Shown one piece after another: positions 7,859-55,860 of a stretch of DNA of 64,000 nt. The stretch spans positions 3,360,001-3,424,000 of the forward strand of contig OY761611.1 of the NCBI GenBank assembly GCA_963664875.1. The letters run 5' to 3'. The stretch's first letter is position 1, and every line of letters starts with the position of its first letter. The position numbers and the translations under genes were made by a program. The notes under the pieces are model-generated. The model had not been told where the DNA came from. It did no database searches and was given only the letters and a program-made list of their open reading frames with translations. This DNA is from Candidatus Kapaibacterium sp. (GTDB taxonomy: Bacteria; Bacteroidota; Ignavibacteria; Kapaibacteriales; UBA2268).

Positions 7859-8305
7859 ATGATTCGATACACATACTTAATACTGCTTCTGCTGATGGCG
7901 GGTTGTCTTGCTAAACCAAAACAACCTGAGTTAGTAAAAGAAGAGCTTGAGTTGTTCGAATATATAAAAAAAGAATCGGGATCAACTTGGGTAAGGCGAG
8001 AACTATATCCCATTTGTGCAGACGAGGATAATAAGTTGTTTAAAGATCCAGAGTATAGTTTATACATACACCTTTCCTGTGATAAGTTAAAAGATGAAGA
8101 TAAATTGGCAAATTTTACTAAACAAATAGCCCCAAAAATAGAATTCCTTATTTTTTCTCCTGATTTTAAATATAATTACAGACAGCAATGGAATTTTATG
8201 AGTGTTACATATTTTTGTTATCCTACAATCGGTTTAACAAAGGCAGTGTCTTTTGAAATAAAGAACGGGAAAGTTTATCGAGGCGATATTCTTGTAAAGG
8301 ACTGA
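7859..8305 (+). CDS. Tandem lipoprotein, copy 1
   Basis: MAGC lipobox; near-identical to the three following ORFs. Confidence 0.8.
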   Translation: MIRYTYLILLLLMAGCLAKPKQPELVKEELELFEYIKKESGSTWVRRELYPICADEDNKLFKDPEYSLYIHLSCDKLKDEDKLANFTKQIAPKIEFLIFSPDFKYNYRQQWNFMSVTYFCYPTIGLTKAVSFEIKNGKVYRGDILVKD

Positions 8306-8309
8306 GCAA

Positions 8310-8762
8310 ATGAAGATGATTCGATACACATACTTAATACTGCTTATGCTGATGGTGGGTTGTCTTGCTAAACCAAAACAACCTGAGTTAGTAAAAGAAG
8401 AGCTTGAGTTGTTTGAATATATAAAAAAAGAATCGGGATCAACTTGGGTAGAGCGTGAACTTTACCCCATTTGTGCCGACGAGGATAATGAGCTATTTAA
8501 AAATCCTATGTATAGTTTAGATATACACCTTTCCTGTGATAAGTTAAAAGATGAAGATAAATTGGCAAATTTTACTAAACAAATAGCCCCAAAAATAGAA
8601 TTCCTTATCTTTTCTCCTGATTTTAAATATAATTACAGACAGCAATGGGATTTAGTTATTGTTTCATATTGGTGTTATCCTACAATCGGTTTAACAAAGG
8701 CAGTGTCTTTTGAAATAAAGAACAGGAAAGTTTATCGTGGCGATATTCTGGTAAAGGACTAA
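8310..8762 (+). CDS. Tandem lipoprotein, copy 2 (patch-divergent)
   Basis: MVGC lipobox; divergent blocks ERELY..NELFKNPMYSLD and WDLVIVSYW. Confidence 0.8.
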   Translation: MKMIRYTYLILLMLMVGCLAKPKQPELVKEELELFEYIKKESGSTWVERELYPICADEDNELFKNPMYSLDIHLSCDKLKDEDKLANFTKQIAPKIEFLIFSPDFKYNYRQQWDLVIVSYWCYPTIGLTKAVSFEIKNRKVYRGDILVKD

Positions 8763-8766
8763 GCAA

Positions 8767-9219
8767 ATGAAGATGATTCGATACACATACTTAATATTGC
8801 TTATGCTTATGGTGGGTTGTCTTGCTAAACCAAAACAACCTGAGTTAGTAAAAGAAGAGCTTGAGTTGTTTGAATATATAAAAAAAGAATCGGGATCAAC
8901 TTGGGTAAGGCGAGAACTATATCCCATTTGTGCAGACGAGGATAATAAGTTGTTTAAAGATCCAGAGTATAGTTTATACATACACCTTTCCTGTGATAAG
9001 TTAAAAGATGAAGATAAATTGGCAAATTTTACTAAACAAATAGCCCCAAAAATAGAATTCCTTATTTTTTCTCCTGATTTTAAATATAATTACAGACAGC
9101 AATGGAATTTTATTAGTGTTACATATTTTTGTTATCCTACAATCGGTTTAACAAAGTCAGTGTCTTTTGAAATAAAGAACGGGAAAGTTTATCGAGGCGA
9201 TATTCTTGTAAAGGACTGA
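8767..9219 (+). CDS. Tandem lipoprotein, copy 3
   Basis: Near-identical to copies 1 and 4. Confidence 0.8.
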   Translation: MKMIRYTYLILLMLMVGCLAKPKQPELVKEELELFEYIKKESGSTWVRRELYPICADEDNKLFKDPEYSLYIHLSCDKLKDEDKLANFTKQIAPKIEFLIFSPDFKYNYRQQWNFISVTYFCYPTIGLTKSVSFEIKNGKVYRGDILVKD

Positions 9220-9224
9220 AGCAA

Positions 9225-9677
9225 ATGAAAATGATTCGATACACATACTTAGTACTGCTTCTGCTGATGGTGGGTTGTCTTGCAAAGCCACAACAACCTG
9301 AGTTAGTAAAAGAAGAGCTTGAGTTGTTTGAATATATCAAAAAAGAATCGGGATCAACTTGGGTAAGGCGAGAACTATATCCCATTTGTGCAGACGAGGA
9401 TAATAAGTTGTTTAAAGATCCAGAGTATAGTTTATACATACACCTTTCCTGTGATAAGTTAAAAGATGAAGATAAATTGGCAAATTTCACTAAACAAATA
9501 GCCCCAAAAATCGAATTGCTTATTTTTTCTCCTGATTTTAAATATAATTACAGACAGCAATGGAATTTTATTAGTGTTACATATTTTTGTTATCCTACAA
9601 TCGGTTTAACAAAGTCAGTGTCTTTTGAAATAAAGAACGGGAAAGTTTATCGAGGCGATATTCTTGTAAAGGACTGA
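9225..9677 (+). CDS. Tandem lipoprotein, copy 4
   Basis: Near-identical to copies 1 and 3. Confidence 0.8.
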   Translation: MKMIRYTYLVLLLLMVGCLAKPQQPELVKEELELFEYIKKESGSTWVRRELYPICADEDNKLFKDPEYSLYIHLSCDKLKDEDKLANFTKQIAPKIELLIFSPDFKYNYRQQWNFISVTYFCYPTIGLTKSVSFEIKNGKVYRGDILVKD

Positions 9678-19240: not shown

Positions 19241-19414
19241 CTGGAAGCCTCGCATAAAAGTTCTTTCAAAAAATGACTACTACCCGTTTGGCATGATGAT
19301 ACCTGAAAATTACTATCAGGATAGCACTACTAAAACTCGTTTCAAGGTCACTGAGCGTAGTCGAAGTGTAATGGTATGGAACGCGATGATGAAATAGCAG
19401 GATTGGGGAATAGC
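19241..19414 (+). repeat. RHS-core remnant repeat, copy 1 (REP inserted at 19346..19368)
   Basis: Translates WKPRIKVLSKNDYYPFGMMIPE...TRF then NGMERDDEIAG; repeated at 20816 and 22704. Confidence 0.85.
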
Positions 19415-20317
19415 TTAAACTTTGGTGCAAGGCAGTATGATAGTCGGATTGCGAGGTGGTTTAGCCAAGATCCGATGAAGTTTAAATTTGCAAGTCTAAC
19501 TTCTTATCAAGCTCTTGGAAATAATCCAATTTTGTATGTAGATCCAACAGGGATGGAGCATTATGTAAATAATTTAGGCGAAATATTGGATGATAGGGAA
19601 GTAAATGATGCTGATGATCCATCTGTCTTTATGGTTGAAGGGGTAGGTGATAAAGAGACTGTGACTAAGTTAGGTGAAGTCGGTGCTACTATAGAAGTAT
19701 CAAAAATATTGACTAATCTTATGACCATAAATGCTGAAACTGCAAGAGAAAAAGTAGATGGAAATTACTGGACATTTTTCAATCTTGTAAGAACAGGTGC
19801 TCCATGGGATTATAAAAATAGAGATGATACGGTATTTGGATTTGGATATGATTCAGATGCAGAAAAGCTAACGGATACACGTTTTAGTTTTAGTCTTATT
19901 TTTGAAGAGAAAGATTTTGTTGAAAATGACTTAACTGCAGCAGATATTGGTAATTTTCACGCTGGCTTTGTAGGTAATCAAGCTGGTTTTAGTGATATAG
20001 ATTTATTTATAGGAGCTGGGCTGGCAGAGAGTTATAAAGATGCTAAAAAATTCGAACTTAAGTTTGCACAAGTGTACCAACTAATATTAGATGAAGCTCC
20101 TTATGGAGACGAGCAAAGGGATTATGAATTCAATCGAGACGGCATTTCAGATAGTCGTCATTGGTCGAAGCAAAATGGAATAAATATTCGAGAACAAACT
20201 TCTTGGGTAAAGATTATATGGGATGCTGGGAAGATACAAACAACTTCAATTGGTATTTTGCCCCCACATGTTGTATTTCAGATGTCATATTTTTATAACA
20301 CACTACTTGGGGATTAA
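19376..20317 (+). CDS. Orphan RHS C-terminal toxin, Ntox44-like
   Basis: RHS core end GARQYDSRIARWFSQDP...NNPILYVDPTG; toxin motifs VRTGAPWDYK, DIGNFHAGFVG, GAG and PYGDEQRD. Confidence 0.8.
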   Translation: MERDDEIAGLGNSLNFGARQYDSRIARWFSQDPMKFKFASLTSYQALGNNPILYVDPTGMEHYVNNLGEILDDREVNDADDPSVFMVEGVGDKETVTKLGEVGATIEVSKILTNLMTINAETAREKVDGNYWTFFNLVRTGAPWDYKNRDDTVFGFGYDSDAEKLTDTRFSFSLIFEEKDFVENDLTAADIGNFHAGFVGNQAGFSDIDLFIGAGLAESYKDAKKFELKFAQVYQLILDEAPYGDEQRDYEFNRDGISDSRHWSKQNGINIREQTSWVKIIWDAGKIQTTSIGILPPHVVFQMSYFYNTLLGD

Positions 20318-20783: not shown

Positions 20784-20986
20784 AAACTTTAATTAAATAA
20801 GCATAAAAGAGACGGCTGGAAGCCTCGTATAAAAGTTCTTTCTAAAAATGACTACTACCCGTTTGGTATGATGATACCAGAAAATTACTATCAGGATAGC
20901 ACTACTAAAACTCGCTTCAAGGTCACTGAGCGTAGTCGAAGTGTAACGGAATGGAGCGAGATGATGAAATAGCAGGTTTTGGGAAT
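20784..20986 (+). repeat. RHS-core remnant repeat, copy 2 (REP inserted at 20921..20943)
   Basis: Near-identical to copy 1, including GGTCACTGAGCGTAGTCGAAGTG. Confidence 0.85.
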
Positions 20987-26688: not shown

Positions 26689-28500
26689 CTATGGCACTTG
26701 AGGGAGTATAGCTATTGGGAGTTTGATTGTAAAAGTACTACCTTCATTTGGTTTACTTTGTACGGAAATTTCTCCACCACATTTCTCGACAAGCTCTTTG
26801 CAAAGAATTAAACCTAAACCTGAGCTTGACTCGCCATTTGTTCCTAATCTTGAGGTTGATTCTGACACAGAAAATAGTTTACCAATTAGTTCTTCGCTCA
26901 TACCTATACCCGAATCTTTTATGGAAAGAGCAACAAACTTGCCTTGTATAGAAGAAGAGATTTCAATATTGCCTCCATTAGGAGTAAATTTCACTGCATT
27001 CGAAAGGATATTCCTGACAATACCGTTGCACATGTTGTTGTCTGATTCTATAAAAGTATTTTCCGGCACTAAATTAGTTACATTGATACTTTTGGAATCA
27101 ATTTTCGGTTCCAATAGAGCTATGTTATAAGATATCAGTTCACTAAGAATAATTGTATCAGGAGTGAAAGGAACGATGTCTCGTTGCATACGTGACCATT
27201 CTAAAAGATTTTCAAGCAAATCATATACTTTAGTAGCACTTTGTTTGAGAAGACTTGAAATTTCAATAATTTCATCATTTTCAGTAGCAACTGATTCGTT
27301 GACCAAAATTTCGGAGAGCCCTAAAAAGCCTGAGAATGGGCTTCTAAGGTCATGAGCTATAATAGAAAAGAACTTATCCTTTTCTTTTATTGATACTTCC
27401 AATTTGTTATTGGTCTCAATAAGGTGATTGCTTGTTTGAATAAGTTTTTTATTAAGTTCATCTGTTTTTATCTTTGAAGCTATAAACATTCCTATAAAAA
27501 ACAACAAAATAGCAGCTACTATCATGCTTACGATTAGAAATGCGTTGTTGTTATAAATTAATTGACTCAATGTCTCATCTCTCGAATAAGAAATGATGTA
27601 GGCTACAGGTATATTTTCTACATTTTTGATGTTTACAAAAGAAACTATGTAAGTGTCTTCTCCTATTTTGGCATATTTTGAAAAATCTTTGTTTGCATTT
27701 ACTAATGTTCCGATTTCATCTTTGATTTTTTCGTTGATAAGCGATATCACCTCAAGAGATTCTTCTCCTATATGATTGTATTTGTTTTCTAAGAGAAAAT
27801 CTTCTGAAATTGGGCAAGCAATATAATTTGAAAGTTCATCATCAAATACTTTTGATTCGACTATATCTTTTTTGATCATCATACATGAATATTTGATGCC
27901 CAGTTGATTCAGGTTTTTGCCTATACCTTCGAAGGAAAAGCTTGTCTCCACGCTACCTAAATGGTCCCCATTATACAACAATGGGAATACATAGCGAAAG
28001 CCGTTAAAAATTCTGCCCTCTTCAAACCCGATTGTTTCTTTTTTAGTTTCGTTGGTTTTCTTTACTGTATATCTTACGTTTGTCAAATTATCACCAAACT
28101 TTTCTGGTCTGTGGAATCTTAGAAAACTTGTATTATCCGGAAGATGGAAGTGTAGCTGTTTGATGTCAATCTTTCTTAAATTTTGATATGTTCTTTCAAG
28201 TAATAGCAGTAGGCTATCTCTTACATTTTGTTGTACAGTGCTATCTTTCGAAGAAGCTTTTTGATATAATGATAGTATTTTATCATTGTTTACTATTTCT
28301 GTAAAAATTGAATAGCTCACCAGATTAAATGAATTTATCGTGGAAGATATTTTGACTTGCAATTCTTTAGCTTTTGTATCCAAGTAGCCATTATAAGTTC
28401 TTTGATTCGAGTCATTAACAGCTAAATAAAGAAGCAATTCAGTTGCTAAAATTGAAAAAAAGAGTATTATTAGGAATTTTATTTTTTGTGACGAATTCAT
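26689..28500 (-). CDS. Cache-domain sensor histidine kinase
   Basis: dCache-type FLRFHRPEKFGDNL..VR, H-box IIAHDLRSPF, NILSNAVKFT, GLGL. Start set at ATG 28500 after a GAGG RBS. Confidence 0.9.
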   Translation of the reverse strand: MNSSQKIKFLIILFFSILATELLLYLAVNDSNQRTYNGYLDTKAKELQVKISSTINSFNLVSYSIFTEIVNNDKILSLYQKASSKDSTVQQNVRDSLLLLLERTYQNLRKIDIKQLHFHLPDNTSFLRFHRPEKFGDNLTNVRYTVKKTNETKKETIGFEEGRIFNGFRYVFPLLYNGDHLGSVETSFSFEGIGKNLNQLGIKYSCMMIKKDIVESKVFDDELSNYIACPISEDFLLENKYNHIGEESLEVISLINEKIKDEIGTLVNANKDFSKYAKIGEDTYIVSFVNIKNVENIPVAYIISYSRDETLSQLIYNNNAFLIVSMIVAAILLFFIGMFIASKIKTDELNKKLIQTSNHLIETNNKLEVSIKEKDKFFSIIAHDLRSPFSGFLGLSEILVNESVATENDEIIEISSLLKQSATKVYDLLENLLEWSRMQRDIVPFTPDTIILSELISYNIALLEPKIDSKSINVTNLVPENTFIESDNNMCNGIVRNILSNAVKFTPNGGNIEISSSIQGKFVALSIKDSGIGMSEELIGKLFSVSESTSRLGTNGESSSGLGLILCKELVEKCGGEISVQSKPNEGSTFTIKLPIAILPQVP

Positions 28501-28803
28501 ATAACCTCTCGCAAGCATTATGTGTGTCGAGCAGTATTTATATAGTAAAAAGAATAATTGAGAACTTAAAATACATTCAATATAAAGGCATAACATATAG
28601 TGTTTTGTGCAAACACAATTCATTTCACAGGTACAGCATTATGGCAATGTAGTGCTTGAAAATTAAATGCTTGACTAACATTCCAAACTATATCTGTAAT
28701 CAAATATGTTCAGTTTTTTTAACTTCCTAAAATCAAAAATAATTCGAGATTTTAGATACAGCAATATAAAATATATACCGGATGTAATATCTTCTATGGA
28801 AAT

Positions 28804-29988
28804 TTACTCCTTCGCCGGTATTGAGACCTCTACTTCTTCGTTTTTACGAACTATTTTTATCTTGTTGTGATCGAATACCGAGCTATCATTATTGATGATT
28901 TCATTTCCGTCGTAAAGCAAGGCAAATCCTTTATCCAAAGGTCGCATTGGGTGCAAAGAGCTACCGTGTGCTTCTAATCTTGTTAGCTTTTCTTTTAGAC
29001 TGCTGATGTGCGAGCTTATTTTGCGATTCATTCGCATTTCATAACTATCAAGACTTTGTTGATATATTTTGAGACGGTCGAGCATTCTGTTTGTAAAACG
29101 GGTGCCTGTAAGATCTTCAATTTGTTCGCTGAAAGTATTGATTTTTCTTCTGATTGAACGTTCTGATAACTCCTCTGCTTTATCAAGGAAACTGAATAAC
29201 TTATCTATTGTAATTGGAGTAGCCATCTCTGCAGCGGCAGTTGGGGTAGCAGCTCTGTGATCTGCCACAAAATCTGAAATTGTAAAGTCAGTTTCGTGAC
29301 CGACTCCGCTGATAATTGGCTTTTTAGAATTGTAAATTGCGTTGGCTACAATTTCTGTGTTGTAGCACCACAAATCTTCGAGCGAGCCGCCTCCGCGACC
29401 TATAATCAATACATCAGCGTCAGAGGCATTAAGTTCTTCTATTGCTTTTGCTATATCTTCTGCAGCACCATCACCCTGCACAAGGGTCGGTCTAAAAATA
29501 ATCTCTGCTGCAGGAAATCTTCTCTGAGTAGTGGATAGTATATCTCTTACTGCTGCACCTGTTGGCGAAGTAGAAACACCAATTTTCATAGGGAGTGCCG
29601 GTATTGCTTTTTTGTGTGCAATGTCGAAGTATCCTTGCGAACTTAATTTATCTTTCAGTGCTTCAAAAGCTAAGTATAAGTCCCCTTGTCCCAAGGGCTG
29701 CATGGAGCTGACATCCATCTGATAGCTTCCTCTTGGAGGATAAACAGTAACGCTACCGGAAACAATTACTTTCATGCCGTCTTTTGGAATAAAATTTAAG
29801 TTTCTTGATTTCCACATAGTGCAGGCTATTTGGGCGTTGCTGTCCTTTATGGAAAAATACCGGTGACCGGAGCTGTGTTCCTTGAAGTTTGATATTTCGC
29901 CTTCTACTCGGATAGAAGCAAATCCCTTTTCTAAGGTGTATTTTATTTGGTTAGTAAGCTGGCTTACTGTGATTATATTTATTTGCAT
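28804..29988 (-). CDS. xseA: Exodeoxyribonuclease VII large subunit
   Basis: VEGEISNF, SGHRYFSIKD, TSPTGAAVRD, GRGGGSLEDLW, SGVGHETDFT. Confidence 0.97.
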   Translation of the reverse strand: MQINIITVSQLTNQIKYTLEKGFASIRVEGEISNFKEHSSGHRYFSIKDSNAQIACTMWKSRNLNFIPKDGMKVIVSGSVTVYPPRGSYQMDVSSMQPLGQGDLYLAFEALKDKLSSQGYFDIAHKKAIPALPMKIGVSTSPTGAAVRDILSTTQRRFPAAEIIFRPTLVQGDGAAEDIAKAIEELNASDADVLIIGRGGGSLEDLWCYNTEIVANAIYNSKKPIISGVGHETDFTISDFVADHRAATPTAAAEMATPITIDKLFSFLDKAEELSERSIRRKINTFSEQIEDLTGTRFTNRMLDRLKIYQQSLDSYEMRMNRKISSHISSLKEKLTRLEAHGSSLHPMRPLDKGFALLYDGNEIINNDSSVFDHNKIKIVRKNEEVEVSIPAKE

Positions 29989-30227
29989 GATTTTGTCTTG
30001 TAGTTGGGAAATTATGAGGCAGCGTCCTTTACAAGTCTTTTAAAATGGACTTTATAATAGTTTTTAGACGACTTCAAGGCTAAAATAAACAATTTCTGCT
30101 CAAAGGCAAAGTTAGAAAATTTATGCTTAACAAAAATAGTGAGAAGGAGGAAGTGATGAAAAAATCGGTCTAAATAAACCTACCTAGCCCGTAATCTACT
30201 TTACGGACGACGTGGCTGCTCAGGGTT

Positions 30228-30360
30228 GCAGATAACGGACAGTATAAGAATAGTAGCCGACTGCGGGCTTTTTTTTGTCAAGATACACGAAAGCTGAGGC
30301 GGGCTACAACCGTTGAATTAACTACTATCACGGCTATTTGCTTTATACATTATTACCTGC
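30228..30360 (-). mobile_element. Integron attC-like recombination site
   Basis: On the minus strand: R'' GCAGGTAAT, inner arm GTATAAAGCAAATAGCCG, complementary arm CGGCTACTATTCTTATAC, R' GTTATCTGC. Begins 10 nt after the kinase stop. Confidence 0.7.
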
Positions 30361-30370
30361 TGGGCTTTTT

Positions 30371-31384
30371 TCAATTTAGTGTTGTTTCTTTAATTGTTTT
30401 AAAAAATACTTCATCCACCTTATCATCGGGTAAATTTGAATAACAATACTCTGTTTTTCTAATTCCATTCTTTTTAAAATCAATTACCCAGCCTGTTCTT
30501 TTTCGGAATTTATTAATTGAATAATTATCCTTATTACTTAGACCTTTCCAATTATCATTGTCAACATAGAACCAATCAATGGCGAAGTTGAGTTTTTCAA
30601 TAGATTGTCGAAATTCAACACAGTTCTGAAACCTGTTTATCTTATTTTTATGGATAGACTTATTCAGTACCTTAATTACTTTCTCAGGAATATGCGGAAG
30701 AAATTGCCGAGGAGGAAATAAATCTTTTTTTACAGCCTTTCTCCATTCATCTTTATTCGAAAAAGTAAATGGTAAATTATTCGTGTTATTCAATAAGCGA
30801 TAAAAAGTAATACCCATAGCATAAATATCACTTAATTTATCCATTGGGTTGCCTTCGATAACTTCTAATGGTTGATGAGGCTTGTATCCCATAACATCGC
30901 TCGGTTCTGAATGATAATTTATAGCTAAACCAAAATCAGATAATTTAGCTTCACCATTATCCCCGAACATGATATTTCCAGGTTTTATGTCTCGGTGTAA
31001 AACATTGTTATTATGAGCATATTCAAGTCCTAGTAAGCTTTGTTGAATAATTTTGCATGATTCTTTAGCGGAAATGAACCTTTTTTCAATATGTTTCTGT
31101 ATCGAACCTTTTTCAAGAAATTCCATTACAATTAAAACAACTGGCTCTGTATTGAAAATTATTGCTCTGACATCTTTTACATCAACTATATGTTTGTGTC
31201 TGCACAAATCAAGTGTTCGACCTTCTCTTACTGCATTTACAAATTTATCGGGGTCTGGCACTTTAATTACTTTTACTGCAATTTCTTTTTGAAGAAATGG
31301 GTCAAAGCATAAATAAACATGTCCAAAGAAACCATTTCCTAAATGGCGAATAATTTGGAATTTATCGAGTTTAGTCCCTTTCAT
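30371..31384 (-). CDS. Hanks-type Ser/Thr protein kinase, cytoplasmic, with a short extra C-terminal domain
   Basis: GNGFFG, IAVK, HRDIKPGN, DFG, PLE and DIYAMG; no transmembrane segment. Confidence 0.92.
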   Translation of the reverse strand: MKGTKLDKFQIIRHLGNGFFGHVYLCFDPFLQKEIAVKVIKVPDPDKFVNAVREGRTLDLCRHKHIVDVKDVRAIIFNTEPVVLIVMEFLEKGSIQKHIEKRFISAKESCKIIQQSLLGLEYAHNNNVLHRDIKPGNIMFGDNGEAKLSDFGLAINYHSEPSDVMGYKPHQPLEVIEGNPMDKLSDIYAMGITFYRLLNNTNNLPFTFSNKDEWRKAVKKDLFPPRQFLPHIPEKVIKVLNKSIHKNKINRFQNCVEFRQSIEKLNFAIDWFYVDNDNWKGLSNKDNYSINKFRKRTGWVIDFKKNGIRKTEYCYSNLPDDKVDEVFFKTIKETTLN

Positions 31385-31839
31385 TACATTAAATTAAACC
31401 ATGCTACCAAAACAGCTTCTTTTGTCGGCTTATCCCAATAAGGAGGATGAGTGCCAATTATTCCATCAATATATGCGTAAACATCAGTCTTCTTAGTTTG
31501 TCCGAATTTGGTAGCATTTATCGCTTGTGGAGAATATGAGTTTATTTGAATATTTCTCTTTTTAGCAAGTAAATTTAAAATCGCCTGTGGATAACACGAA
31601 TTCCTAACTTGGTCAAGTGTTGATATTGTCAATGAAATTTTGTGACTTAACAAATCTGGACTATGCTTATCAATAATCAAGGAAAGTTGAGTTTCAAACC
31701 ATTCCATTAAATCAGCGGTATCCATGTTATTTGGATAAACGATTTTGTTTTTTTCGATAATGGTCGGTGGTTTGGTTTGGTTTCCTAAAACACAGTATCG
31801 AAAATCATTCTTTGTAAAATTAAATCCTATTGCTATCAT
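31384..31839 (-). CDS. RuvC/RNase-H-fold protein with degenerate catalytic residues
   Basis: Aligns by eye with RuvC (IAIGFNF vs ILGIDPG, IIDKHSPD vs IITQFQPD, YSPQAI vs YAARQV, KEAVLVA vs ADALAIA). Its stop overlaps the kinase start (TAATG). Confidence 0.6.
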   Translation of the reverse strand: MIAIGFNFTKNDFRYCVLGNQTKPPTIIEKNKIVYPNNMDTADLMEWFETQLSLIIDKHSPDLLSHKISLTISTLDQVRNSCYPQAILNLLAKKRNIQINSYSPQAINATKFGQTKKTDVYAYIDGIIGTHPPYWDKPTKEAVLVAWFNLM

Positions 31840-32003
31840 AGTTTCTCTGTCTTTTTAGCCTGACCGCAAACTCATTTATCTACATACTCTCAATAAATGA
31901 TAAGCTAAAATAAGAAATTCTTGAAATAAAAAAAAATAATCATTGGATACATTCTTATAAACAACAATAAAATAGAGAATTGTGTATGAACCACGAACAA
32001 CTA

Positions 32004-32043
32004 CTGCTATTTCATCATCTCGCACCATGCCATTACACTTCGA
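32004..32043 (-). repeat. Dispersed fourth copy of the REP/RHS-core junction
   Basis: Minus strand TCGAAGTGTAATGGCATGGTGCGAGATGATGAAATAGCAG is 37/40 identical to copy 2 and 36/40 to copy 1. Confidence 0.8.
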
Positions 32044-32471
32044 TACTTTACCTCGACAAAGCTCGGCATAAACTAAGCTCAGCACATCGCTCGCTTTGCT
32101 CGCGGTCATCGTGCAAATAAAATGAGTCGAGATGCAGTGCCCTATTGCGTCTCACTCTTGTCGCCCTTACAGGGTTAAGGGATCAGAAGAATATTATATC
32201 CATGACGATGCCATGGACTACGTTTTTGGGGCTTTCAGCCTTCTTGTTTCTGTAATATTTTGCACAATATCTGCATGAAACTTATTTATGAGGTTGTCAC
32301 ATAAGTACTATTTAGATATTATTAGACAAACTTAGTGAAAAACATTAGTGTAAAAGGAGGCTGAAAGCCTCAGATATATTAGCCCGGGGCAGCGCCCCGG
32401 GAAAGATAAGACATTGAAATATAGAGCCCTGTAAGGGCGACCAGTTTGAGACGCAATCATTGCGTCTCTAC
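32036..32471. repeat. Cluster of REP-like palindromes, including a ~115-bp imperfect inverted pair (32127..32243 and 32356..32471)
   Basis: GGCTGAAAGCC, CCCGGGGCAGCGCCCCGGG, GCCCTGTAAGGGC and GAGACGCAATCATTGCGTCTC units, with a degenerate reverse copy. Confidence 0.75.
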
Positions 32472-32540
32472 ATTAGATTGTCTAGTGTATTGAGTAATCT
32501 TCAAGTTAATATAGATTATTTTGACTTATGCGTCAGTCTC
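32290..32540. mobile_element. Degenerate MITE shell of the 9712/60376 family with different REP cargo
   Basis: Ends GAGGTTGTCACATAAGT and TTTTGACTTATGCGTCAGTCTC. Confidence 0.5.
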
Positions 32541-32621
32541 TATGTTTTGAAAATAGACTTCTGAGACGTAAAGTAATGAGACTCATCAAAGCTACTATTT
32601 CCTTTAAATAGAGGAGTACTT

Positions 32622-33608
32622 CTACTTCTTCTTTAGTTTTTGTACAGCACGTTTTTTTATCATTCCGCCCTTTGTATCTCTTATACTGTTCATAATTACG
32701 AAAGCATGCGGGTCAATTTTATCTAACTCTGTTTGCAGTTTGGCAATCTCGAGCCTTGTTACCACAGTGTAAAGTATATCCTGTTTTGCAGTTCTTTCTC
32801 CTTCAGGAGTAAAGCCTCGAGAGCCATGGTAAATTGTAACTCCATGACCAAGAGTATTTGTCAGCATTTTCCTTACTTCTTCTGTTTGATGCGAGATAAT
32901 GCTGATTCCCGTGTATTCTTCGATACCTTCTATTACAAAATCTACAGTTTTGGAGGCTGCCATGTAAGTCAAAATAGCGTATAATGCTATTTCAATAGAT
33001 AGTATGTAAGCTCCGACAGAAAATATCATAATATTGAATATCAAAATAATATCGCCAACGGTCAGCCTAAGCCGCTTACTTAAAAATATTGCGAGTATCT
33101 CAGTGCCGTCGAGCACCGCACCTCCTCTGATGGCAAGGCCTATGCCGGCTCCAAGGAAAAAACCTCCAAATGCGGCTACTAAAAGTTTGTCATTAGTAAT
33201 TGGAGGATAAGGTACAAAATGTACCGCGAGAGCTAAACCGATAATAGCCAACAGCGATTTAATAACGAAGCTTTGACCAATCTGAGAGTAACCCATAATC
33301 AAAAATGGCAGATTGATAACAATTAAAAGTACAGATAGACCAACACCGGATACTTCCGACGTTAGTAGGGATATACCTGTTACGCCGCCATCAATAAAGC
33401 CGTTGGGAAGTAAAAAACTACTTAAGCCAAATCCGGCAGAGGCTACTCCGAGCATTATAAATAAATATTCTTTTATTTTATGGATATACTCTATTACTGT
33501 ATCTCTGAATATATCATCAAAACTATAGTCCGATTGAGCACTATAGCCCCGCTCTTTGATTATTTGTTTTACTTTTTTCGAAATAATAAATTGAAAAAAT
33601 GGGTTCAT
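32622..33608 (-). CDS. YitT family membrane protein (DUF2179)
   Basis: FLLPNGFIDGGVTGIS, INLPF, GGAVLDGTEILA, IDPHAF. Confidence 0.92.
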   Translation of the reverse strand: MNPFFQFIISKKVKQIIKERGYSAQSDYSFDDIFRDTVIEYIHKIKEYLFIMLGVASAGFGLSSFLLPNGFIDGGVTGISLLTSEVSGVGLSVLLIVINLPFLIMGYSQIGQSFVIKSLLAIIGLALAVHFVPYPPITNDKLLVAAFGGFFLGAGIGLAIRGGAVLDGTEILAIFLSKRLRLTVGDIILIFNIMIFSVGAYILSIEIALYAILTYMAASKTVDFVIEGIEEYTGISIISHQTEEVRKMLTNTLGHGVTIYHGSRGFTPEGERTAKQDILYTVVTRLEIAKLQTELDKIDPHAFVIMNSIRDTKGGMIKKRAVQKLKKK

Positions 33609-33725
33609 TGCTGGCTCGTCTATATAATATGATAATAATAAATATAACGATTTTTGTTATATTTTCCTTTCTATACAGACTGATTTATTTTACGCTAGTC
33701 TCAGGCAGACTTAATTGGAGAAAAA

Positions 33726-34772
33726 ATGATATACAGACCGAATGTAATCAGAGAAAAACTAAATTTGAAGCGTTCTGTTTATCCGCTTTTTGTGTTATTG
33801 GCTGTTGTTATTGGTGGCACTTATGGGTATATGCTTTTGGGGGCTGACCAAAACACTACTTTTATTGACGGATTATACATGACTTGGATTACAATAGCGA
33901 CAATCGGATATTCTGAAGTTATAGAGTTAGATGCAAGCGGACGTGTTTTTACCATGATAGTTGGAGCACTTGGCATCGGCAGCTTATTTTATATTTTAGG
34001 CGTTTTTATGGAAAATCTTGTCGCAGTACAGTTGTTGAACCTAAGAGGAAATAAAAAGGTGAAAAAAAAGATTGACGAAATGAATAATCACATTATAGTA
34101 GTCGGATTGGGAAGAGTGGGTAATCTGACTGCTTCGGAATTGAAATCAAAGGGAATAGATTGCGTTGTTGTCAGCAATAAATTCGAAGAAAAAGAGAAAT
34201 CTATACTTAATGAGCATGTGTTAGCAATAGAGGGTGATGCCACAGAAGATGAGATATTACAAGCTGCCGGAATCAAAAGAGCGAAAGGTATTATAATTAC
34301 TACAGCCAATGCAGCGACTACTCTATTTGTGGTATTGAGTGCAAAAGAATTAAATCCAAATATTTTTGTTGTAGCTCGAGCCGACGAAGACAGTACAATA
34401 AATAAATTGAAACGTGCAGGTGCAGACCGAGTAGTCAATCCATACTCCACCGGTGGCCAGCGACTTGCCAATTTTGTAATCAAGCCACATGTTGTAGATT
34501 TTTTCGAATCGAGCTTTGGCTATGGGGAGTATGATTTGACTTTAGAATCTATCGACTTGCCCGATCATTGCAAGTGGTTCAATAAGTCCCTTAAAGAGTT
34601 AAATCTTAGAGTAGTAGCCGGAGCAAGTGTTTTAGCAGTCATTCGTGAAGGAAAGCCAATACTTAATCCGGGTGCAAATTTTGTTTTCCTCAAAAATGAT
34701 AAATTACTTGCATTTGGGACTCAATCTCAGTTGAAAAAATTAGAAGACTATATGACAATTGAGGAATATTAG
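33726..34772 (+). CDS. Potassium channel protein (Ion_trans_2, TrkA-N, TrkA-C)
   Basis: Pore motif TIATIGYSE, GLGRVG Rossmann motif, GDAT, AGADRVVNP. Confidence 0.9.
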   Translation: MIYRPNVIREKLNLKRSVYPLFVLLAVVIGGTYGYMLLGADQNTTFIDGLYMTWITIATIGYSEVIELDASGRVFTMIVGALGIGSLFYILGVFMENLVAVQLLNLRGNKKVKKKIDEMNNHIIVVGLGRVGNLTASELKSKGIDCVVVSNKFEEKEKSILNEHVLAIEGDATEDEILQAAGIKRAKGIIITTANAATTLFVVLSAKELNPNIFVVARADEDSTINKLKRAGADRVVNPYSTGGQRLANFVIKPHVVDFFESSFGYGEYDLTLESIDLPDHCKWFNKSLKELNLRVVAGASVLAVIREGKPILNPGANFVFLKNDKLLAFGTQSQLKKLEDYMTIEEY

Positions 34773-46075: not shown

Positions 46076-49000
46076 CTACCTCACTACCATTACTTTGCGC
46101 CTCTCGACATAAGTAGGTGTTTTGAATTGCAATATATAATGACCCGAGCCTATTTCGGAAATGTCTTGGATTATTTGTCTATCCTGAAAATCTGAAATAT
46201 CTTCTGCGAAAAATGTGGCAACGGTTTTCCCAAGCATATTTACTAAAGTGATTTCTGTATAACCTACTTCAATGACAGAGAAGTCAATCTGTATGCGGTT
46301 CTCAGCCGGGTTAGGGGAGAGGTTAAATATAGCAACTTTCTCCTCTGTATTCGAGGTTGGTTTAAGTTTTTTGAAAAGACCACTTGTGAATTCTGTGTCA
46401 TAAGTAAACTCATTTCCTTCTTTGTCGAACCATATTAAATATTCGAAGTCAATAGAAGTACTTTCTACTAAACCAGGTTCAACTTTAAAAGGAATTGTCG
46501 TAAGAATATTACCCTCATTGTTAATCTCACCTTTAAATTTTACGTATGCGGAATCAGCTTTTGTTTCTACTAAATCTTCTTCGTTAATAACACTCAATAG
46601 GCTACTCTCAACACGCACTAATCCTTCAAAAGAGCCTATCATTTCTGAGAATTTCTCAATCCCATTATTTTCAATTTTAATATCAATACCAACAACCCCG
46701 CCTACTAATGCAGAATCAGTCGAAGCTGATACTTCCGCACCGATACCGGCACCGTAAAGCTGAGCTATTGCCGGAGAGCCAGCACCATTAAAGTGGAACG
46801 CAACCTGACCGCTTGTTCTTCCAATATATTTTGGATTAAAGCTAATATTTAGACTATAGGCTTTGTTCCCAGCTAATGTGAAAGGTTGAATCTGTGTCGA
46901 ATCTCTAAATATAAACTGCTCATTATCAGGACCAAGCATTTCGATCTTGGTAATATCGATTGGTTCAGGTGTCACATTTTCAATAAGAACAATGGATGAA
47001 TCAGCATTGTTATACATTTCACCAATACCAAAATCAATGATCTCTGAATAAGCTACAATCTGCTCTGCGACTCCATGTCCGTAAATATTTTGCGTCAGAG
47101 TATCCGCTTGAGTAACAACTACCACCTGAGCTGAATAATCCCTCACTTCAGTAGGAGTAAACTTAAACTCGCACATCTGTTTCTCACCAACTGCAACTGA
47201 ATAAACCGGATTCGGGCCATTCAATCCAAAATAATCCGCATCAGCTCCTTCAAAATAAATAGTATCAATCCTGCAATCCCATTGCCCGATATTATCGAAA
47301 AACTCAGTTATAACAGAATCTTTACTTGAGTTTACAACAACATCACCCATATTTATGTCTTGGCTTGAGACTTCGGGGGCAACTATGGAGAAAACAGCAT
47401 CAGAGGTATCGGATTGAATGCCGTTTGTAATACTCTCTATTTTCGCAACCCAAATGTCGCTTGTAGATTTACTTCCATCATGGTTTTTGGGGACATCAAA
47501 GTCGTTTGAGCTAGATTGAGAAGTAAAAACTATTTCAGAATAGTTGTTTATAAGGAAATCACCCAAGAATTCGTTTGAAGAACCACCTAATAACTTTTGC
47601 CACAAAAGATTTCCATCTTGGTCTAAATAGCTAATCCATGTGTCATATTCTCCATGATTTTCTGAAAATAGACCATCTTTTGAGCGACTATTGCCAGCTA
47701 AAACAAGATTCCCATTTTGACTCGCCTTGATTGATAACCCTGCATCTTCATAAATCCCACCTAAACATTTTTGCCAATCTATTTCACCGTTACTATCGAT
47801 TTTTACTAACCATGCATCATAGTATCCCTTATTACCGCTGACGTCATAATCAAATGAGTAGGTCTGCCCTGTAAATATATAATTTTTGTCCTGAGTTTCA
47901 ATAATGCTGCGAGCATTGTCTAAATTACTTCCGCCATAGTTGTTTTTCCAGATTACATTGCCCATCGGATTCATTTTAATAACCAGCACATCATCCATTC
48001 CATAATTTCCGTTTGTAGTCAGATTATTGGATTTAGTGACACCGGCAATGACAATGTTATTGTCAAATGTTTCCAACACAGAATAAGCTGATTCTGTGCC
48101 GTAACCTCCAATAACTTGCTGCCATTTAATATCTCCATTTTGTGAAATCTTCACAGTCCAAGTATCGTAATCGCCAAAATTCTCAATTATGTCTCCATCT
48201 ATTGAATTTGTTTGTCCTACAAAAATATACCCACCATCTTTAGATTGAATAATGTCATTGGCTTTGTCGTCTAACGAACCACCGTAACACTTCTTCCACT
48301 CTATGTTACCTTCTGAGTTGAGTTTGAGTATCCATGCGTCGCTGTTTCCATGGTTACCTAATACATCTTTATCATTAGATGTTGTTGAGCCTGCCAAAAT
48401 ATATCCGCCGTCTAAGGTATTGATAATTTTGCTTGCGATATCAATTTTGCTACCTCCGAATGTCTTGTCCCATTCAATTTGACCTTTTGAATTGATTTTT
48501 AGCAAGACTATGTCTTTATCACCGTTGTTTTTACTTATGTCCCAATTGTTGGAGTTTGAATACCCAGCTATTAAGTATCCACCGTCTTTGCATTGAATAA
48601 TAGAATTTGGACTGTCATTTAAACTACCTCCAAAACTATTAGTCCATTCCATCGATAGAGAGTTTTCTTTTGACTTTGTGTGTATTCTGACCAAACAATT
48701 ATCTGAAACTTTGAACGGGATATGTACCCACTTTGATTTTAAATTATCTGCATTGTTTAGCAATTCCTGCCAAGAAATACCATTATCAATGCTATATTCA
48801 ATAGACACTGTATCAGATGGAAGTACTCCTGACCAAGAAATGAGCGTATCAGTTCCAACTAAAAATTGTTCATTTCCATTTGGAGCAAGCAATGTGAGTT
48901 TTCTGTTATATCCGCCATTATTTTTAAATTTGTTTCCCGAGCAAAAAAGATAAGAGCTACAAAATTGAGTCTTAAACTCAAGCTCTGAAATTACATAGGC

Positions 49001-50104
49001 ACTGTTTTCAGGGGTGAAACTAACAGTTAAAGATAAACTTTCATTCTTTTTAAGTGAGAACTGCTTTGGTTGAATGTCAAATCTATTATCGGAACTACTT
49101 ATATTCGATACATCAATATCGTTTCCTATTGCAGTTACAACAATTGTGGTGTCATTACTTTGATTTAGTTTAGGTGATTGGAAAAATAAATTACTTGGTT
49201 CAATTAGTAATTTTGCTATGCCGCTTAGAGGTTGCGGATATGAAACTTTTCCTGTCAAATTTAAACTAAAATTTTCCACATCCAATCGAATTATATCTGA
49301 TTTGCATCTGTATTTCGAACTCCATTCAATAGTACAGGCAGAATTACCTTGCGTTGAGTGTAAAATCTTATTATAAGTTTCTTTTGCTTCTTCTATCGAA
49401 GTAATATTTTCAAACCACATTCCACCTGTTTCTTCGGCAATATTTTTGAGCATGATTGGACAATTAAACCCTAAAGTAACACAATAAAAGGTGGCATCCA
49501 TGCTTAGCGCTTTTGATAATATTTTATCTTCATTGCCTGCTGCGTACCCATCGGTTATTAGTACCATCACTTTTTTATGCTTCGCCTTCTCCAAAACAAT
49601 TAAACCACCAGCAATTGGATTAATAAAGGCTGCATTAAAATCAGTATCTCCGTAATTAGAGAGTGTTTGTAGTTTTTGTAAAAGCTTATTGCGATTGGTT
49701 GTAAAATCTTGTATATATTGATTTTCAGATGTAAAGGAAGTTATTGCACATTCTGACTTTCCAAGAGGCAGCGCGTTAACCCAGCTTTTTGCCGCTTCTT
49801 TAGCCATCTCTATGGAGTTCCCGGTCATTGAGCCGGAAACATCTATTGTAAGTACACTTGAAATTGCGGTAGGAGACTGAGGCGTAGGGCAGGAGATATT
49901 CAATACTTCTCTCTGTTCATCATTTTCGGTTACTTCGAAATCTGAAGCTTGTAGCCCTAATATCTGCTTTCCATCAGAGTCAAAAGCATAAAACTTTGCT
50001 CGCATAATCGGGAAGTCGGTTGTGTCAATATCGAAAACAGAGAGAGATTGGCTACCTGCTTGGTATATCAAAATCAGGAATAAGAACAATATGATTTTTT
50101 GCAT
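46076..50104 (-). CDS. Secreted vWA, ASH/Ig and beta-propeller repeat protein with T9SS C-terminal domain
   Basis: Signal peptide, MIDAS DVSGSM, repeated GxIxWxKxxGGS..D units, C-terminal SPNPA...VNMLGK...SGHYIL. Confidence 0.85.
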   Translation of the reverse strand: MQKIILFLFLILIYQAGSQSLSVFDIDTTDFPIMRAKFYAFDSDGKQILGLQASDFEVTENDEQREVLNISCPTPQSPTAISSVLTIDVSGSMTGNSIEMAKEAAKSWVNALPLGKSECAITSFTSENQYIQDFTTNRNKLLQKLQTLSNYGDTDFNAAFINPIAGGLIVLEKAKHKKVMVLITDGYAAGNEDKILSKALSMDATFYCVTLGFNCPIMLKNIAEETGGMWFENITSIEEAKETYNKILHSTQGNSACTIEWSSKYRCKSDIIRLDVENFSLNLTGKVSYPQPLSGIAKLLIEPSNLFFQSPKLNQSNDTTIVVTAIGNDIDVSNISSSDNRFDIQPKQFSLKKNESLSLTVSFTPENSAYVISELEFKTQFCSSYLFCSGNKFKNNGGYNRKLTLLAPNGNEQFLVGTDTLISWSGVLPSDTVSIEYSIDNGISWQELLNNADNLKSKWVHIPFKVSDNCLVRIHTKSKENSLSMEWTNSFGGSLNDSPNSIIQCKDGGYLIAGYSNSNNWDISKNNGDKDIVLLKINSKGQIEWDKTFGGSKIDIASKIINTLDGGYILAGSTTSNDKDVLGNHGNSDAWILKLNSEGNIEWKKCYGGSLDDKANDIIQSKDGGYIFVGQTNSIDGDIIENFGDYDTWTVKISQNGDIKWQQVIGGYGTESAYSVLETFDNNIVIAGVTKSNNLTTNGNYGMDDVLVIKMNPMGNVIWKNNYGGSNLDNARSIIETQDKNYIFTGQTYSFDYDVSGNKGYYDAWLVKIDSNGEIDWQKCLGGIYEDAGLSIKASQNGNLVLAGNSRSKDGLFSENHGEYDTWISYLDQDGNLLWQKLLGGSSNEFLGDFLINNYSEIVFTSQSSSNDFDVPKNHDGSKSTSDIWVAKIESITNGIQSDTSDAVFSIVAPEVSSQDINMGDVVVNSSKDSVITEFFDNIGQWDCRIDTIYFEGADADYFGLNGPNPVYSVAVGEKQMCEFKFTPTEVRDYSAQVVVVTQADTLTQNIYGHGVAEQIVAYSEIIDFGIGEMYNNADSSIVLIENVTPEPIDITKIEMLGPDNEQFIFRDSTQIQPFTLAGNKAYSLNISFNPKYIGRTSGQVAFHFNGAGSPAIAQLYGAGIGAEVSASTDSALVGGVVGIDIKIENNGIEKFSEMIGSFEGLVRVESSLLSVINEEDLVETKADSAYVKFKGEINNEGNILTTIPFKVEPGLVESTSIDFEYLIWFDKEGNEFTYDTEFTSGLFKKLKPTSNTEEKVAIFNLSPNPAENRIQIDFSVIEVGYTEITLVNMLGKTVATFFAEDISDFQDRQIIQDISEIGSGHYILQFKTPTYVERRKVMVVR

Positions 50105-50191
50105 TGTATTGTGATTTATAGTGATAAAAACATCACAATATACAGATTTGATTTGTAATAATTTGAGGATTAATTTTTAAATTTTCTGATT

Positions 50192-50220
50192 AAAAAACAG
50201 GCACCCTAAGAGAGTGCCTG
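50192..50220 (-). terminator. Intrinsic terminator
   Basis: Minus strand CAGGCACT..GGTGCCTG followed by T6. Confidence 0.75.
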
Positions 50221-50237
50221 CGTAAAATCATTCCTAA

Positions 50238-53200
50238 CTACCTCACCACCATTACTTTGCGTCTCTCGACATAAGTAGGTGTTTTGAATTGCAATATATA
50301 CTGACCTGAGCCTATTTCGGAGATGTCTTGGATTATTTGTCTATCCTGAAAATCTGAAATATCTTCAGCAAAAAATGTAGCAACGGTTTTCCCAAGCATA
50401 TTTACTAATGTTATTTCTGTATAACCTGCTTCGATGACAGAGAAGTCAATTTGTATGCGATTTTCAGCCGGGTTAGGGGAAAGGTTGGAGATGCCGACTA
50501 TTCCATCAGGATTGAAGAAGCGTTTACCACCCTCTTCGCAAAGATCTATTAGCTTTAGACTGCCAGGTTTTGTATTGATAAGAAGCATTTTGTCTTTAGC
50601 AGTTATTTCTGAAAAAAGAATTGGGCTGACTTCTTTATCACCTAACATAATAGAGAAAGGCATCATTGCAAGAGTGTCGCCAATATTTTTGTTAACGTCG
50701 AACTCGTTAAAAGTAATATGTCCCTGATTCAAATGAATTTCTGCCAGCTCGTTAGTTGGCAGCATCACATAGCTGTTAAATTCAATTTTAGCTGCCATCC
50801 CATCGGAAACAAGTTTGTGCAAATTGAGTGTATCAACTAAAATTATTGGTAGATTTATAGTTTCGCCAGCACGCGCTTCTAAGTCAGGTATAGAAATAGA
50901 TATTGTCGGAGTTTGTGCTTCAATTGCTTCACCAAACACGTTGACAATAGCAGGATTAGCAGATAAGTGATGCAAAATTTCAATATATGAATCTTTAGTG
51001 CCTACTGTTTGCGGATAGAAATCTAAATCTACAAACAATGTGTCCCCTTCTGCTAAGGTAGTGCTTACAAATCCCATTCCTGTTTCAAAGTCTATCACAT
51101 CAGTTCCCTGTATTGTCACTTGAGATAGTATCAAATCTTCTGTTCCGGTATTAACAAGTATTGGAATATTTGTGCTGTCAACTCTTTGCCCGAGCTCGAT
51201 AGTTCCGTAATCTATGTTGTCTGTTATGATTTCCATGCCTTCACTTGTGCTTCTGCCTATTACATTTCTAATAATTGTATCAGACTGGCAGACCATATAG
51301 AGATTAGTCTGTTTGTTACCTGTGCTTGTAGGTTTAAACGTTATATCTAAATCAAGTTGCTCATCTTTAGAAAGATAGAAAGGAACTGAAAGATTTTTTA
51401 TTTCAAACTGATCAAAATCACCTTTTGCCAAAAAGACATTTTCAACTTTGTTTTCGTACAAGCCGGAATTATGGAAATACTCTGATACAGTTGAATCGTT
51501 TGCCGTTCCAACCGGCTGGTCAGCAAATACTATATCTTCTATGTCAACAGTATTTCTTGCATAGCCTTCAGCATGTAAAGCTACCTGATGTGGCGAACCC
51601 GAAGCATCATGATAGAATAGCAGAAGTCCGGAAGTTCTACCAATGGAATTTGCCGTATATGCTAAATCCATACGACATGTATCCCCAGGATTAAGAGTGA
51701 AAGGTCCTGCACCTTTGATGGTGGTAAAATCTGTTGCATTCGGAAAAGCGTGTTCTGTTTTTGAAATATTTACAGGGAAGTTACCCACATTGGTTATTGT
51801 AACAGCGTCTAATGTGTCGCGAGTATCTCCTATATACACCCGACCAAAATCTATATCTTCATTCACTACTAGAACTTTGGGTTCTACACCTTCGCCACGG
51901 ATGTTCTGAAATATAGTGTCTGCTTGAGATACAATGACAATTCTTGCTTTATACTCTCTAACTTCTGTAGGTGCAAACTTAAATTCTGCCCATTGATCTT
52001 CGTCTTGGAGTACTGTATATTTTGGTAAAGGGCCATTGAGTGCAAAATATTGATCATCAGAACCTGTAAAATATATTGAATCAATTCGACATTGCCACTT
52101 TCCATTGTTCGCAATAAATTTATTTACAACAGAATCTTTACGTGTATTGATTACTACTTTGCCCATATCTATATCTTGGCTTTCTATTTTTGGAATTACG
52201 ATAGAGAAGAGAGAATCTGATGTGTCAAATTGATCAAAAGTGCCTCCATCATCCAAAAGCCATATTCTTGCTTTTGATTTGCTGTTACCGTATGCGATTC
52301 TGCTTCCATCAGGACTCCATTCAACAGAGTAAATATAGCCTTCATTATTTTCAATTGAATATAGAACTTTACCTGTTGCTGTATTAAATATTGTAATGGG
52401 TCCGGTAAAACTAGATGTAGCAATCATATTACCATCCGGATTCCAACTAAGATAATTTATTGGGAAATCAAGATCATTAAGAATATTCAGAATAGTTCCT
52501 AAATTAGCATCCCAAAGAATGACATATTTGTCACTGCTTGCTGTTGCAACTTTACTATCGTCAGGACTCCACCCTAGGTGATTAACAGATCCCAAATGTG
52601 ATTTTAACTCTAACAGATTGATCCCGGTATTGGCATCCCAAATAACAGCAGTTTTATCAGAACTTGCAGTTGCAATTTTAGAACCGTCATGACTCCATGC
52701 GAGATGATTGACTACATCTGTATGTTTTGTAAGTAGATACAAGAGACTTCCGGAATTAACATCCCAAATAGCTGCTGTTTTATCGTCACTAGCAGTTGCG
52801 ACCCTCGAGCCATCGGGACTCCAAGAAACAATATTAACGTCTCGTTTGTGTACATTCAAGGTATGAAGAAGAGTACCAGTGGAAACATCCCAAATAGTAG
52901 CAGTATGATCATCACTCACTGTGGCAACACGAGACCCATCAGGACTCCAGCATATTTGACTTACTTTGCTCGATATGTGCTTTAAAGTTTTGAGCTGTTC
53001 TCCTGTTTCTGCATTCCAAATCCTTCCTGTACTGTCATAACTAGCCGTTGCTACTTTGGATCCACCAGGACTCCAACTTATATATGAAATTATTCCTTTA
53101 TGCCCTTCTAATATTGTCCGAATCGATCCTATATTAGCATCCCATATTAAGCTTCTGAAGTTTAAACCTGTAGTTGCTATCATGTTCCCGTCTGGACTCC

Positions 53201-55721: not shown

Positions 55722-55827
55722 AATTATACTATATACGGTGATAAAAACATCACAATATACAGATTTGATTTGTAATAATATGAGGATTAATTGAAAAAAT
55801 GCAAAAATATATGTTCTATTATCATAC

Positions 55828-55860
55828 AAAAAAGCAGGATAAACTAACATTTTATCCTGC
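55828..55860 (-). terminator. Intrinsic terminator
   Basis: Minus strand GCAGGATAAA...TTTATCCTGC followed by T6. Confidence 0.75.

Follow-up and report, generated by a model that had tools for sequence, protein, structure and literature searches.

Abortive infection based on protein kinases has been described in a few cases, each with a single gene, and it is largely open how the kinases concerned detect an infection. Stk2 of staphylococci reportedly acts as a single-gene kinase defence, and PD-T4-6 is likewise described as a single gene. Short prokaryotic Argonaute systems couple a catalytically dead, RNase H-like PIWI sensor to an effector, and clusters of attC sites exist without an integrase. 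In this work, we analysed a window of 64,000 nucleotides from Candidatus Kapaibacterium sp. (assembly GCA_963664875.1, contig OY761611.1, positions 3,360,001 to 3,424,000 of the forward strand), in which two coupled genes encode a small RuvC-shaped protein, predicted to be unable to cut DNA, and a cytoplasmic Ser/Thr kinase. The original prediction, made by a model from the sequence and its open reading frames (ORFs), had proposed a solitary integron-type cassette carrying a candidate anti-phage system. Our results suggest that the pair is probably an undescribed phage-defence or toxin-antitoxin module, and on balance we lean towards a self-contained, horizontally mobile two-gene conflict module, with the kinase as effector and the dead RuvC as regulator or sensor.

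Several described systems resemble this pair in part. It shares with Stk2 and PD-T4-6 a cytoplasmic Hanks-type Ser/Thr kinase as likely effector, but differs from these single genes by an obligatory upstream partner of RuvC fold and by a private C-terminal domain of the kinase. Its likeness to short Argonaute systems, namely a catalytically dead fold from the RNase H-like superfamily next to a separate toxic effector, is an analogy only, as the pair has RuvC instead of PIWI, its effector would be a kinase and no guide nucleic acid is implied. The order of genes, the smaller first and the kinase second in a two-gene operon, is that of HipBA, from which the pair differs by a kinase that is Hanks-type rather than HipA-like and by a partner that does not belong to the helix-turn-helix proteins. 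In its kinase domain, the kinase resembles MAD6 (MADS), PglW (BREX) and PknB/Stk1, whereas it scores far below the cut-offs of these families and has neither PASTA domains nor a membrane part; no partner gene of the MADS, BREX or PknB/Stk1 systems was seen in the window. The pair was named in none of the libraries searched and no description of it was found in the literature searched, in line with the original prediction, which had not recognised it as a named system. The main texts of two preprints on defence in integrons (10.1101/2024.07.02.601686 and 10.1101/2024.07.02.601719) mention no kinase system and no RuvC; their supplements could list the pair.

Fold, catalytic residues and linkage of the two proteins

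The two genes are as follows.
31384..31839, minus strand: ORF of the small protein, 151 aa, a RuvC fold without the catalytic Asp (N7) and Glu (K67), with D136 and E141 kept
30371..31384, minus strand: ORF of the kinase, 337 aa, a cytoplasmic Hanks-type Ser/Thr kinase with a kinase domain (residues 9-253) and a family-specific domain of beta sheet plus helix (266-337)

The stop codon of the first ORF overlaps the start codon of the second in TAATG, so that the coupling of two minus-strand genes, as originally read, was found again in both coordinates and sequence. The AlphaFold2 model of the small protein, built on 21 relatives, reached a predicted local distance difference test score (pLDDT) of 91.7, and the Foldseek comparison, proposed at the outset as a check, revealed that the protein has, over its entire length, an RNase H-like fold of RuvC topology. 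Ranks 1 to 12 against the PDB were all RuvC structures (top match 7xhj_A, E 8.4e-11, TMq 0.82), and a profile of 71 diverse members of the family matched Deinococcus radiodurans RuvC over its full length (E 1.5e-9). The claim that the 151-aa protein follows RuvC from end to end was thus upheld by structure search, model and profile alike. The sequence itself has diverged from RuvC, with 12 bits (E 0.19) for the Pfam family (PF02075), below the gathering cut-off of 22.2; this sub-threshold match was the only one in Pfam, and no family match was found in PADLOC 2.0.0 (2023), NCBIfam 20.0 (2026) or PHROGs. It should be noted that an ordinary RuvC (158 bits, 23% identical to the small protein) is encoded elsewhere in the genome, so that the small protein is an extra RuvC-fold protein and not the housekeeping gene. 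No longer, fused form of the small protein was found, which is weak evidence.

The small protein also departs from RuvC in its catalytic residues. In alignments, N7 takes the place of the catalytic Asp, and K67 that of the Glu, as originally proposed, and the family counts agree. Among 42 kinase-linked members, position 7 was Asn in 31, His in five, Ala in three and Thr in three, never acidic, and position 67 was always Lys (36) or Arg (6). In the wider family (n = 71), position 7 was acidic in only six members and position 67 was Lys or Arg in 63. Of the RuvC catalytic acids (Asp, Glu, Asp/His, Asp), the first two are lost. Acids are kept at two further positions: D136 hardly varies, and 36 of the 42 members have Asp or Glu at position 141. 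As judged from alignments and predicted structure, the small protein is a catalytically disabled RuvC-fold protein, which should be unable to cut DNA. Like RuvC, it has the same fold over its whole length; it differs from RuvC by its score under the Pfam cut-off, by Lys or Arg at the position of the catalytic Glu and by the kinase gene that follows. The median isoelectric point (pI) of the small proteins was 8.9. In a study on an engineered Escherichia coli RuvC (RuvCDef; D7N, E66D), this variant binds Holliday junctions without cutting them, and cleavage by E. coli RuvC is abolished when these two catalytic positions are changed (PMC5222578). The small protein shares with RuvCDef, as described there, Asn at the first catalytic position, so that, by analogy, junction binding by this natural Asn-7 form is plausible.

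The kinase is intact. It matched the Pfam family Pkinase (PF00069) over residues 9-253 with 151.6 bits (E 3.6e-44, cut-off 31.7), and residues K38, E54, H130, D132, K134, N137, D150, F151 and G152 were invariant in 42 kinase sequences, which corresponds to a complete catalytic set (VAIK Lys, helix C Glu, HRD, Asn and DFG). The model (pLDDT 90) shows a PknB-like kinase domain, PknB being the best fold match, followed by an extra C-terminal domain of five strands and a helix at residues 266-337, with pLDDT 96-98. This domain had no Pfam family at E <= 10 and no Atlas hit, and all 36 of its 36 matches were kinases of the same family. The highest mean hydropathy over 19 aa was 1.57 and falls within the kinase core, so no membrane segment was seen. 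The intact motifs, the lack of a transmembrane segment and the additional C-terminal domain of about 70 aa, all of them original claims, were therefore recovered. With respect to known kinase systems, PADLOC models for mad6 (E 1.2e-53) and PD-T4-6 (best E 1.9e-45, residues 6-266) matched, and other kinase families score like PD-T4-6 on this domain. The kinase stayed far under the NCBIfam cut-offs (MAD6 NF047741, 128.2 vs 460 bits; PknB NF033483, 153.4 vs 450; PglW, 27 vs 990), and its Pfam matches included no PASTA and no HipA family (HipA being considered at E <= 1).

Scanning one genome per species yielded 43 loci from about ten phyla. A kinase homologue directly followed the small gene in 42 of them, and in the 41 complete loci the gap lay between -20 and +66 nt, in most cases between -4 and +9. 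Whole-genome searches added three further linked loci (L065, L070 and L071), two of which (L070 and L071) encode small proteins only 22% identical to that of the window and still have the kinase. The small gene and the kinase were the only genes to recur across loci, the next cluster being tyrosine recombinases (seven loci), and the flanks of the loci were unrelated to each other. The co-occurrence on which the initial proposal depended is thus conserved. In L039, an Xre-type antitoxin and a RES toxin stand after the small gene in place of a kinase (L039:6001-7579), and a short ORF directly past the small-gene stop has a start that resembles a truncated gene.

Trees of the small protein and of the kinase recovered the same well-supported groups, with phyla mixed: Flavobacteriaceae grouped with Balneolaceae, Accumulibacter with Desulfobacteraceae, and Chloroherpeton lay within Bacteroidota. 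Near-identical pairs occur in different orders and phyla, and the pair is rare and patchy, as it was present in two of 401 sampled genomes of the window's phylum and in three of 401 of another (about 0.5%). The two genes form one unit, which has been co-transferred between phyla.

Cassette architecture of the family and of the window's copy

The pair family moves as an integron-type gene cassette. A case in point is Shewanella gelidii (L027), where the pair is exactly one cassette in an attC array of 13 model-detected sites, in a genome that encodes IntI (454 bits); ten full-length repeats of this array, from which the model was built, share invariant TAACAAG...GGCGTTA ends. As the two genes alone fill this cassette, they suffice as a unit. 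Where near-identical units occur in unrelated genomes, the DNA in common is confined to the stretch that a GTT box opens and an AAC-ending box closes, and in a gammaproteobacterial clade the shared DNA extends to GGGCGTTA, 63 nt past the stop. A perfect 9-nt inverted repeat, GTTnnnnnn ahead of the small gene and nnnnnnAAC behind the kinase, bounds the pair in 12 of 42 cases (41 loci and the window), with 8/9 in two more, whereas shuffled controls gave 9/9 in two of 840. These boxes vary by locus yet remain complementary, that is, they covary. The relatives are in this respect like integron cassettes, in which a GTT box complements an AAC-ending box just after the genes, followed by a hairpin of about 60-135 nt ending in GTT. 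Well-formed attC hairpins of about 135 nt were found in L009 and L012 (fold z -2.2 and -4.6), and the attC of L025 gave z -2.4. Downstream of the kinase in L002, L009 and L012, an attC family of about 135 nt is common to Cytophagales, Dyadobacter and Chitinophaga loci, with conserved inner arms (GGTTTTGC... and ...CGCAAAGCC) and outer boxes that are variable but complementary.

Two recombinases close to the pair were compared with integron integrases. The one neighbouring the pair in L025 was rejected as such (81.6 bits against a cut-off of 265). In L008, a tyrosine recombinase about 1.2 kb upstream of the pair (L008:3685-4752) passes NCBIfam NF040815, site-specific tyrosine recombinase/integron integrase (229 vs 220 bits), and fails TIGR02249 (211 vs 265 bits).

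In the window, the parts of the cassette are the following.
30228..31871, minus strand: entire solitary cassette within the limits first proposed, consisting of a GTT box at the 5' end, a leader, the two genes and an eroded attC-like site, as read from the sequence, related cassettes and metagenome contigs
31862..31871, minus strand: 5' boundary box GTTTGCGGTC, like the GTTGGCGGT(C) that opens the units of L001, L002, L003, L008 and L009, and non-complementary to the 3' box
31840..31861, minus strand: leader AGGCTAAAAAGACAGAGAAACT, 22 nt, with which the similarity to metagenome contigs (about 98.5% identity) sets in; in contigs of four runs the match begins at 31861 and continues downwards, with unlike sequence on the other side
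30356..31861, minus strand: 1506-bp core, matched at about 98.5% identity by contigs of four public runs that represent different habitats, one of the contigs being from an RNA library
30228..30360, minus strand: eroded attC-like site of about 133 nt, with first box GCAGGTAAT (30360-30352) and last box GTTATCTGC (30236-30228)

The cassette-end strings quoted in the original prediction were recovered in the window where it had placed them, the 5' string GTTTGCGGTCAGGCTAAAAAGACAGAGAAACTATG lying at 31871 to 31837 on the minus strand and the first attC-like box beginning 10 nt past the kinase stop. The ends of this copy nevertheless differ from those of an intact cassette. The first attC-like box has no AAC, the 5' and 3' boxes are complementary at only three of nine positions in the inverted-repeat scan, and the attC-like stretch (137 nt) folds as single-stranded DNA no better than shuffles (z 0.19 and -0.04). 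No integron integrase was found in the window, as first noted, or in the whole 3.83-Mb genome, where the best TIGR02249 score was 84.8 bits (cut-off 265), outside the window. A covariance model (R1) built from ten Shewanella attC sites matched neither the window nor most loci, which is weak evidence because the model is narrow, and a strict core-site scan, which found none in the window and only one site in the positive control L027, was discarded as too strict.

Comparison with relatives and contigs indicates that the first reading as a cassette was right in kind. The 3' end of the window's attC-like site, CCGTTATCTGC, agrees with the attC of a related cassette, L012, at 10 of 11 bases. Three metagenome contigs (X10, X6 and X8) differ from the window's core by 21-23 letters in 1506 and continue with unlike sequence beyond both of its ends, and the matching contigs' own flanks form the pair GTTGCCTGC...GCAGGCAAC. 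Many unrelated metagenome contigs carry the piece 30232-30265 and diverge just past GTTA, as at cassette boundaries. Judging from these sequences, we read the attC-like site as real though eroded. What stands of the solitary cassette originally described is thus the packaging seen in many genomes of the family; in the window itself the 5' box is mismatched, the attC is eroded and the palindrome taken alone is at chance level. This copy, a solitary and fossilising cassette with intact genes, is probably no longer mobile, and it exemplifies how a cassette of this kind can be left behind in an integron-free genome and decay there.

Defence neighbourhoods and functional readings

The surroundings of the relatives were assessed with Pfam on up to three ORFs per side (219 ORFs) and with PADLOC, at E <= 1e-10, on ORFs of 125 aa or more, of which the flanks have 151 and 150 were used. 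Defence matches in PADLOC lay within three ORFs of the pair in 21 of 43 loci, so that defence-island context, which the original prediction had proposed to look for, is frequent among relatives. Clear cases are the following.
L023: pAgo, HamA and HamB (Hachiman) on one side of the pair, PD-T7-1 on the other
L043: methylase and specificity subunit of a type I restriction-modification (RM) system on one side, IetA with a subtilase on the other
L037: PD-T7-4 as neighbour
L038: BilC/D as neighbour
L018: bSEFIR as neighbour
L010, L013 and L024: PDC candidate systems
L006, L007, L012 and L040: RM genes

The PDC candidates among the neighbours were PDC-S21, PDC-S31 and PDC-S37. Pfam further detected AbiC, AbiH, PLD and Schlafen domains in the flanks, and the toxin-antitoxin genes RES-Xre, SymE and Gp49/HigB-like were also present. 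Further loci are located within conjugative transposons or beside insertion sequence elements.

From a mechanistic point of view, the kinase would be the effector of the module; once switched on, it would phosphorylate host or phage proteins, growth would stop and infection would abort. The RuvC-shaped protein encoded upstream would be both regulator and sensor. It would keep the kinase inactive, probably by way of the C-terminal domain private to this kinase, until an infection cue led it to release or activate the kinase. Possible cues are phage DNA in branched or four-way form and a phage protein directed at RuvC-like folds. A more specific version, which we regard as tentative and rather unlikely as a whole, makes the small protein a natural Holliday-junction trap, an immune sensor of the branched recombination or replication intermediates that phages make in large amounts. 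It would activate the kinase via the kinase's C-terminal domain. If true, infection would be sensed by DNA shape and not by sequence or protein, with a device so compact that one integron cassette can carry it from phylum to phylum. As the likely sensor has the recognisable fold of a DNA-junction binder from which the cutting residues have been removed, the cue of the kinase is directly testable. The pair is a compact, strictly conserved two-part system, and it would be a clear case with two genes for the notion that defence functions are carried by integron cassettes.

A number of observations weigh against this defence module. No phenotype is known for the pair, and its role in defence is what we infer. 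No PADLOC match lay within three ORFs in 22 of the 43 loci, at least two of the 21 matches are probably not defence genes (an IstB scored as DrmD, and a HEAT repeat), and the 21 in 43 are a raw count. The PD-T4-6 and mad6 matches of the kinase span the generic kinase domain alone. Searches with the small protein found no copy in phage or plasmid collections, and one locus, L039, has the small gene and no kinase. As for the copy in the window, its neighbours are the housekeeping genes xseA, yitT and trkA. Its expression is uncertain since the cassette leader is short, and is hinted at by a single contig only, from an RNA library that may contain DNA. Because this copy lies among housekeeping genes with decayed cassette ends, the defence reading rests on its relatives. 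The original prediction accordingly holds for the fold and its lost residues, the kinase, the coupling, the mobility as a cassette and the defence context of the family, whereas an anti-phage or toxic effect, contact between the two proteins and the sensing of branched DNA are putative.

Of the other explanations, the best surviving is a plain toxin-antitoxin addiction module, which we consider possible though rather doubtful. The kinase would be the toxin and the RuvC-shaped protein the antitoxin, and the module would stabilise cassette arrays or islands without a specific anti-phage role. The putative antitoxin is indeed encoded upstream in a tightly coupled pair, which in L027 is located in a chromosomal cassette array, several neighbours are themselves toxin-antitoxin genes (those named above), and the distribution is patchy and mobile. 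By contrast, no DNA-binding repressor domain can be recognised in the small protein, whose full RuvC fold is strongly conserved, and named defence systems are often direct neighbours of the pair. It should be stressed that addiction and anti-phage roles are compatible with each other.

An ordinary accessory of signalling or DNA repair, in which the kinase would regulate recombination or repair with the RuvC-shaped protein as junction-binding adaptor, appears improbable. DNA binding is suggested by the RuvC fold and the basic pI, and the window's pair adjoins xseA (exonuclease VII). However, this adjacency is due to an insertion absent in two congeners, only about 0.5% of the genomes sampled have the pair, different loci have unrelated flanks and the pair crosses phyla nearly unchanged.

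We give still less credit to a helper in the mobility or maintenance of the carrier element, for instance in the processing of cassette hairpins or junctions. A binder of junction-shaped DNA would be at home in a cassette that recombines through folded hairpins and an atypical Holliday junction, and tyrosine recombinases lie near the pair in seven loci. Most loci nevertheless have no recombinase within the flanks examined, the window's genome has no integron integrase, and we know of no role of a kinase in cassette recombination.

Finally, a nuclease-plus-kinase system, in which the small protein would still be a nuclease with other catalytic residues, is the least probable reading of all. The nearly invariant D136 and the Asp or Glu kept at position 141 in 36 of 42 members speak for it. 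Against it, none of the 42 linked members has an acid at position 7 and all have Lys or Arg at position 67, and changing both positions abolishes cleavage by E. coli RuvC (PMC5222578).

Insertion site and other features of the window

The cassette is contained in a larger piece of extra DNA.
29989..32621, no strand assigned: about 2.6 kb between xseA and yitT without counterpart in two genomes of the same genus, comprising the cassette and flanks made largely of short dispersed repeats of the genome itself

In the two congeners (G002 and G003), xseA stands directly beside yitT, about 55 bp apart, and represents the empty site. The ends of the 2.6-kb insertion showed no terminal inverted repeats or target duplication, only 10-mers at chance level. 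The xseA site was also considered as a defence hotspot, which was rejected since G001 and G004 carry metabolic genes beside xseA.

The DNA around the cassette consists largely of short repeats dispersed in the window's genome, with further families in both flanks. Upstream, positions 32110-32480 form a highly structured palindromic element (RNA fold z -8.7), a member of a dispersed repeat family for which the genome has 66 matches, including a run of copies about 264 bp apart near 3.4518-3.4530 Mb of G000. A search of Rfam over 28000-34000 returned only a sub-threshold Acido-Lenti-1 at 32357-32401, inside this dispersed repeat. Just beyond the 3' end of the cassette, positions 30064-30137 have two further copies in the genome and positions 30175-30223 about 11, and these copies cluster at 3.21, 3.44-3.45 and 3.52 Mb. 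A 40-bp repeat covers the start of one ORF each at 19361-19400 and 20936-20975; an Ntox44 toxin domain is encoded by one of the two ORFs (19376-20317). The repeat is also present in inverted orientation at 32004-32043, upstream of the cassette and inside a 77-aa ORF (31876-32109).

Elsewhere in the window, four tandem plus-strand ORFs of 148-150 aa lie head to tail at 7859-9677, with no Pfam match at 1e-4. Two very large minus-strand ORFs, of 1968 aa and 1342 aa, occupy 46076-56144; the 1968-aa protein is rich in WD40 repeats, and the 1342-aa protein combines VWA and Ig-like domains with a sorting tail for type IX secretion.

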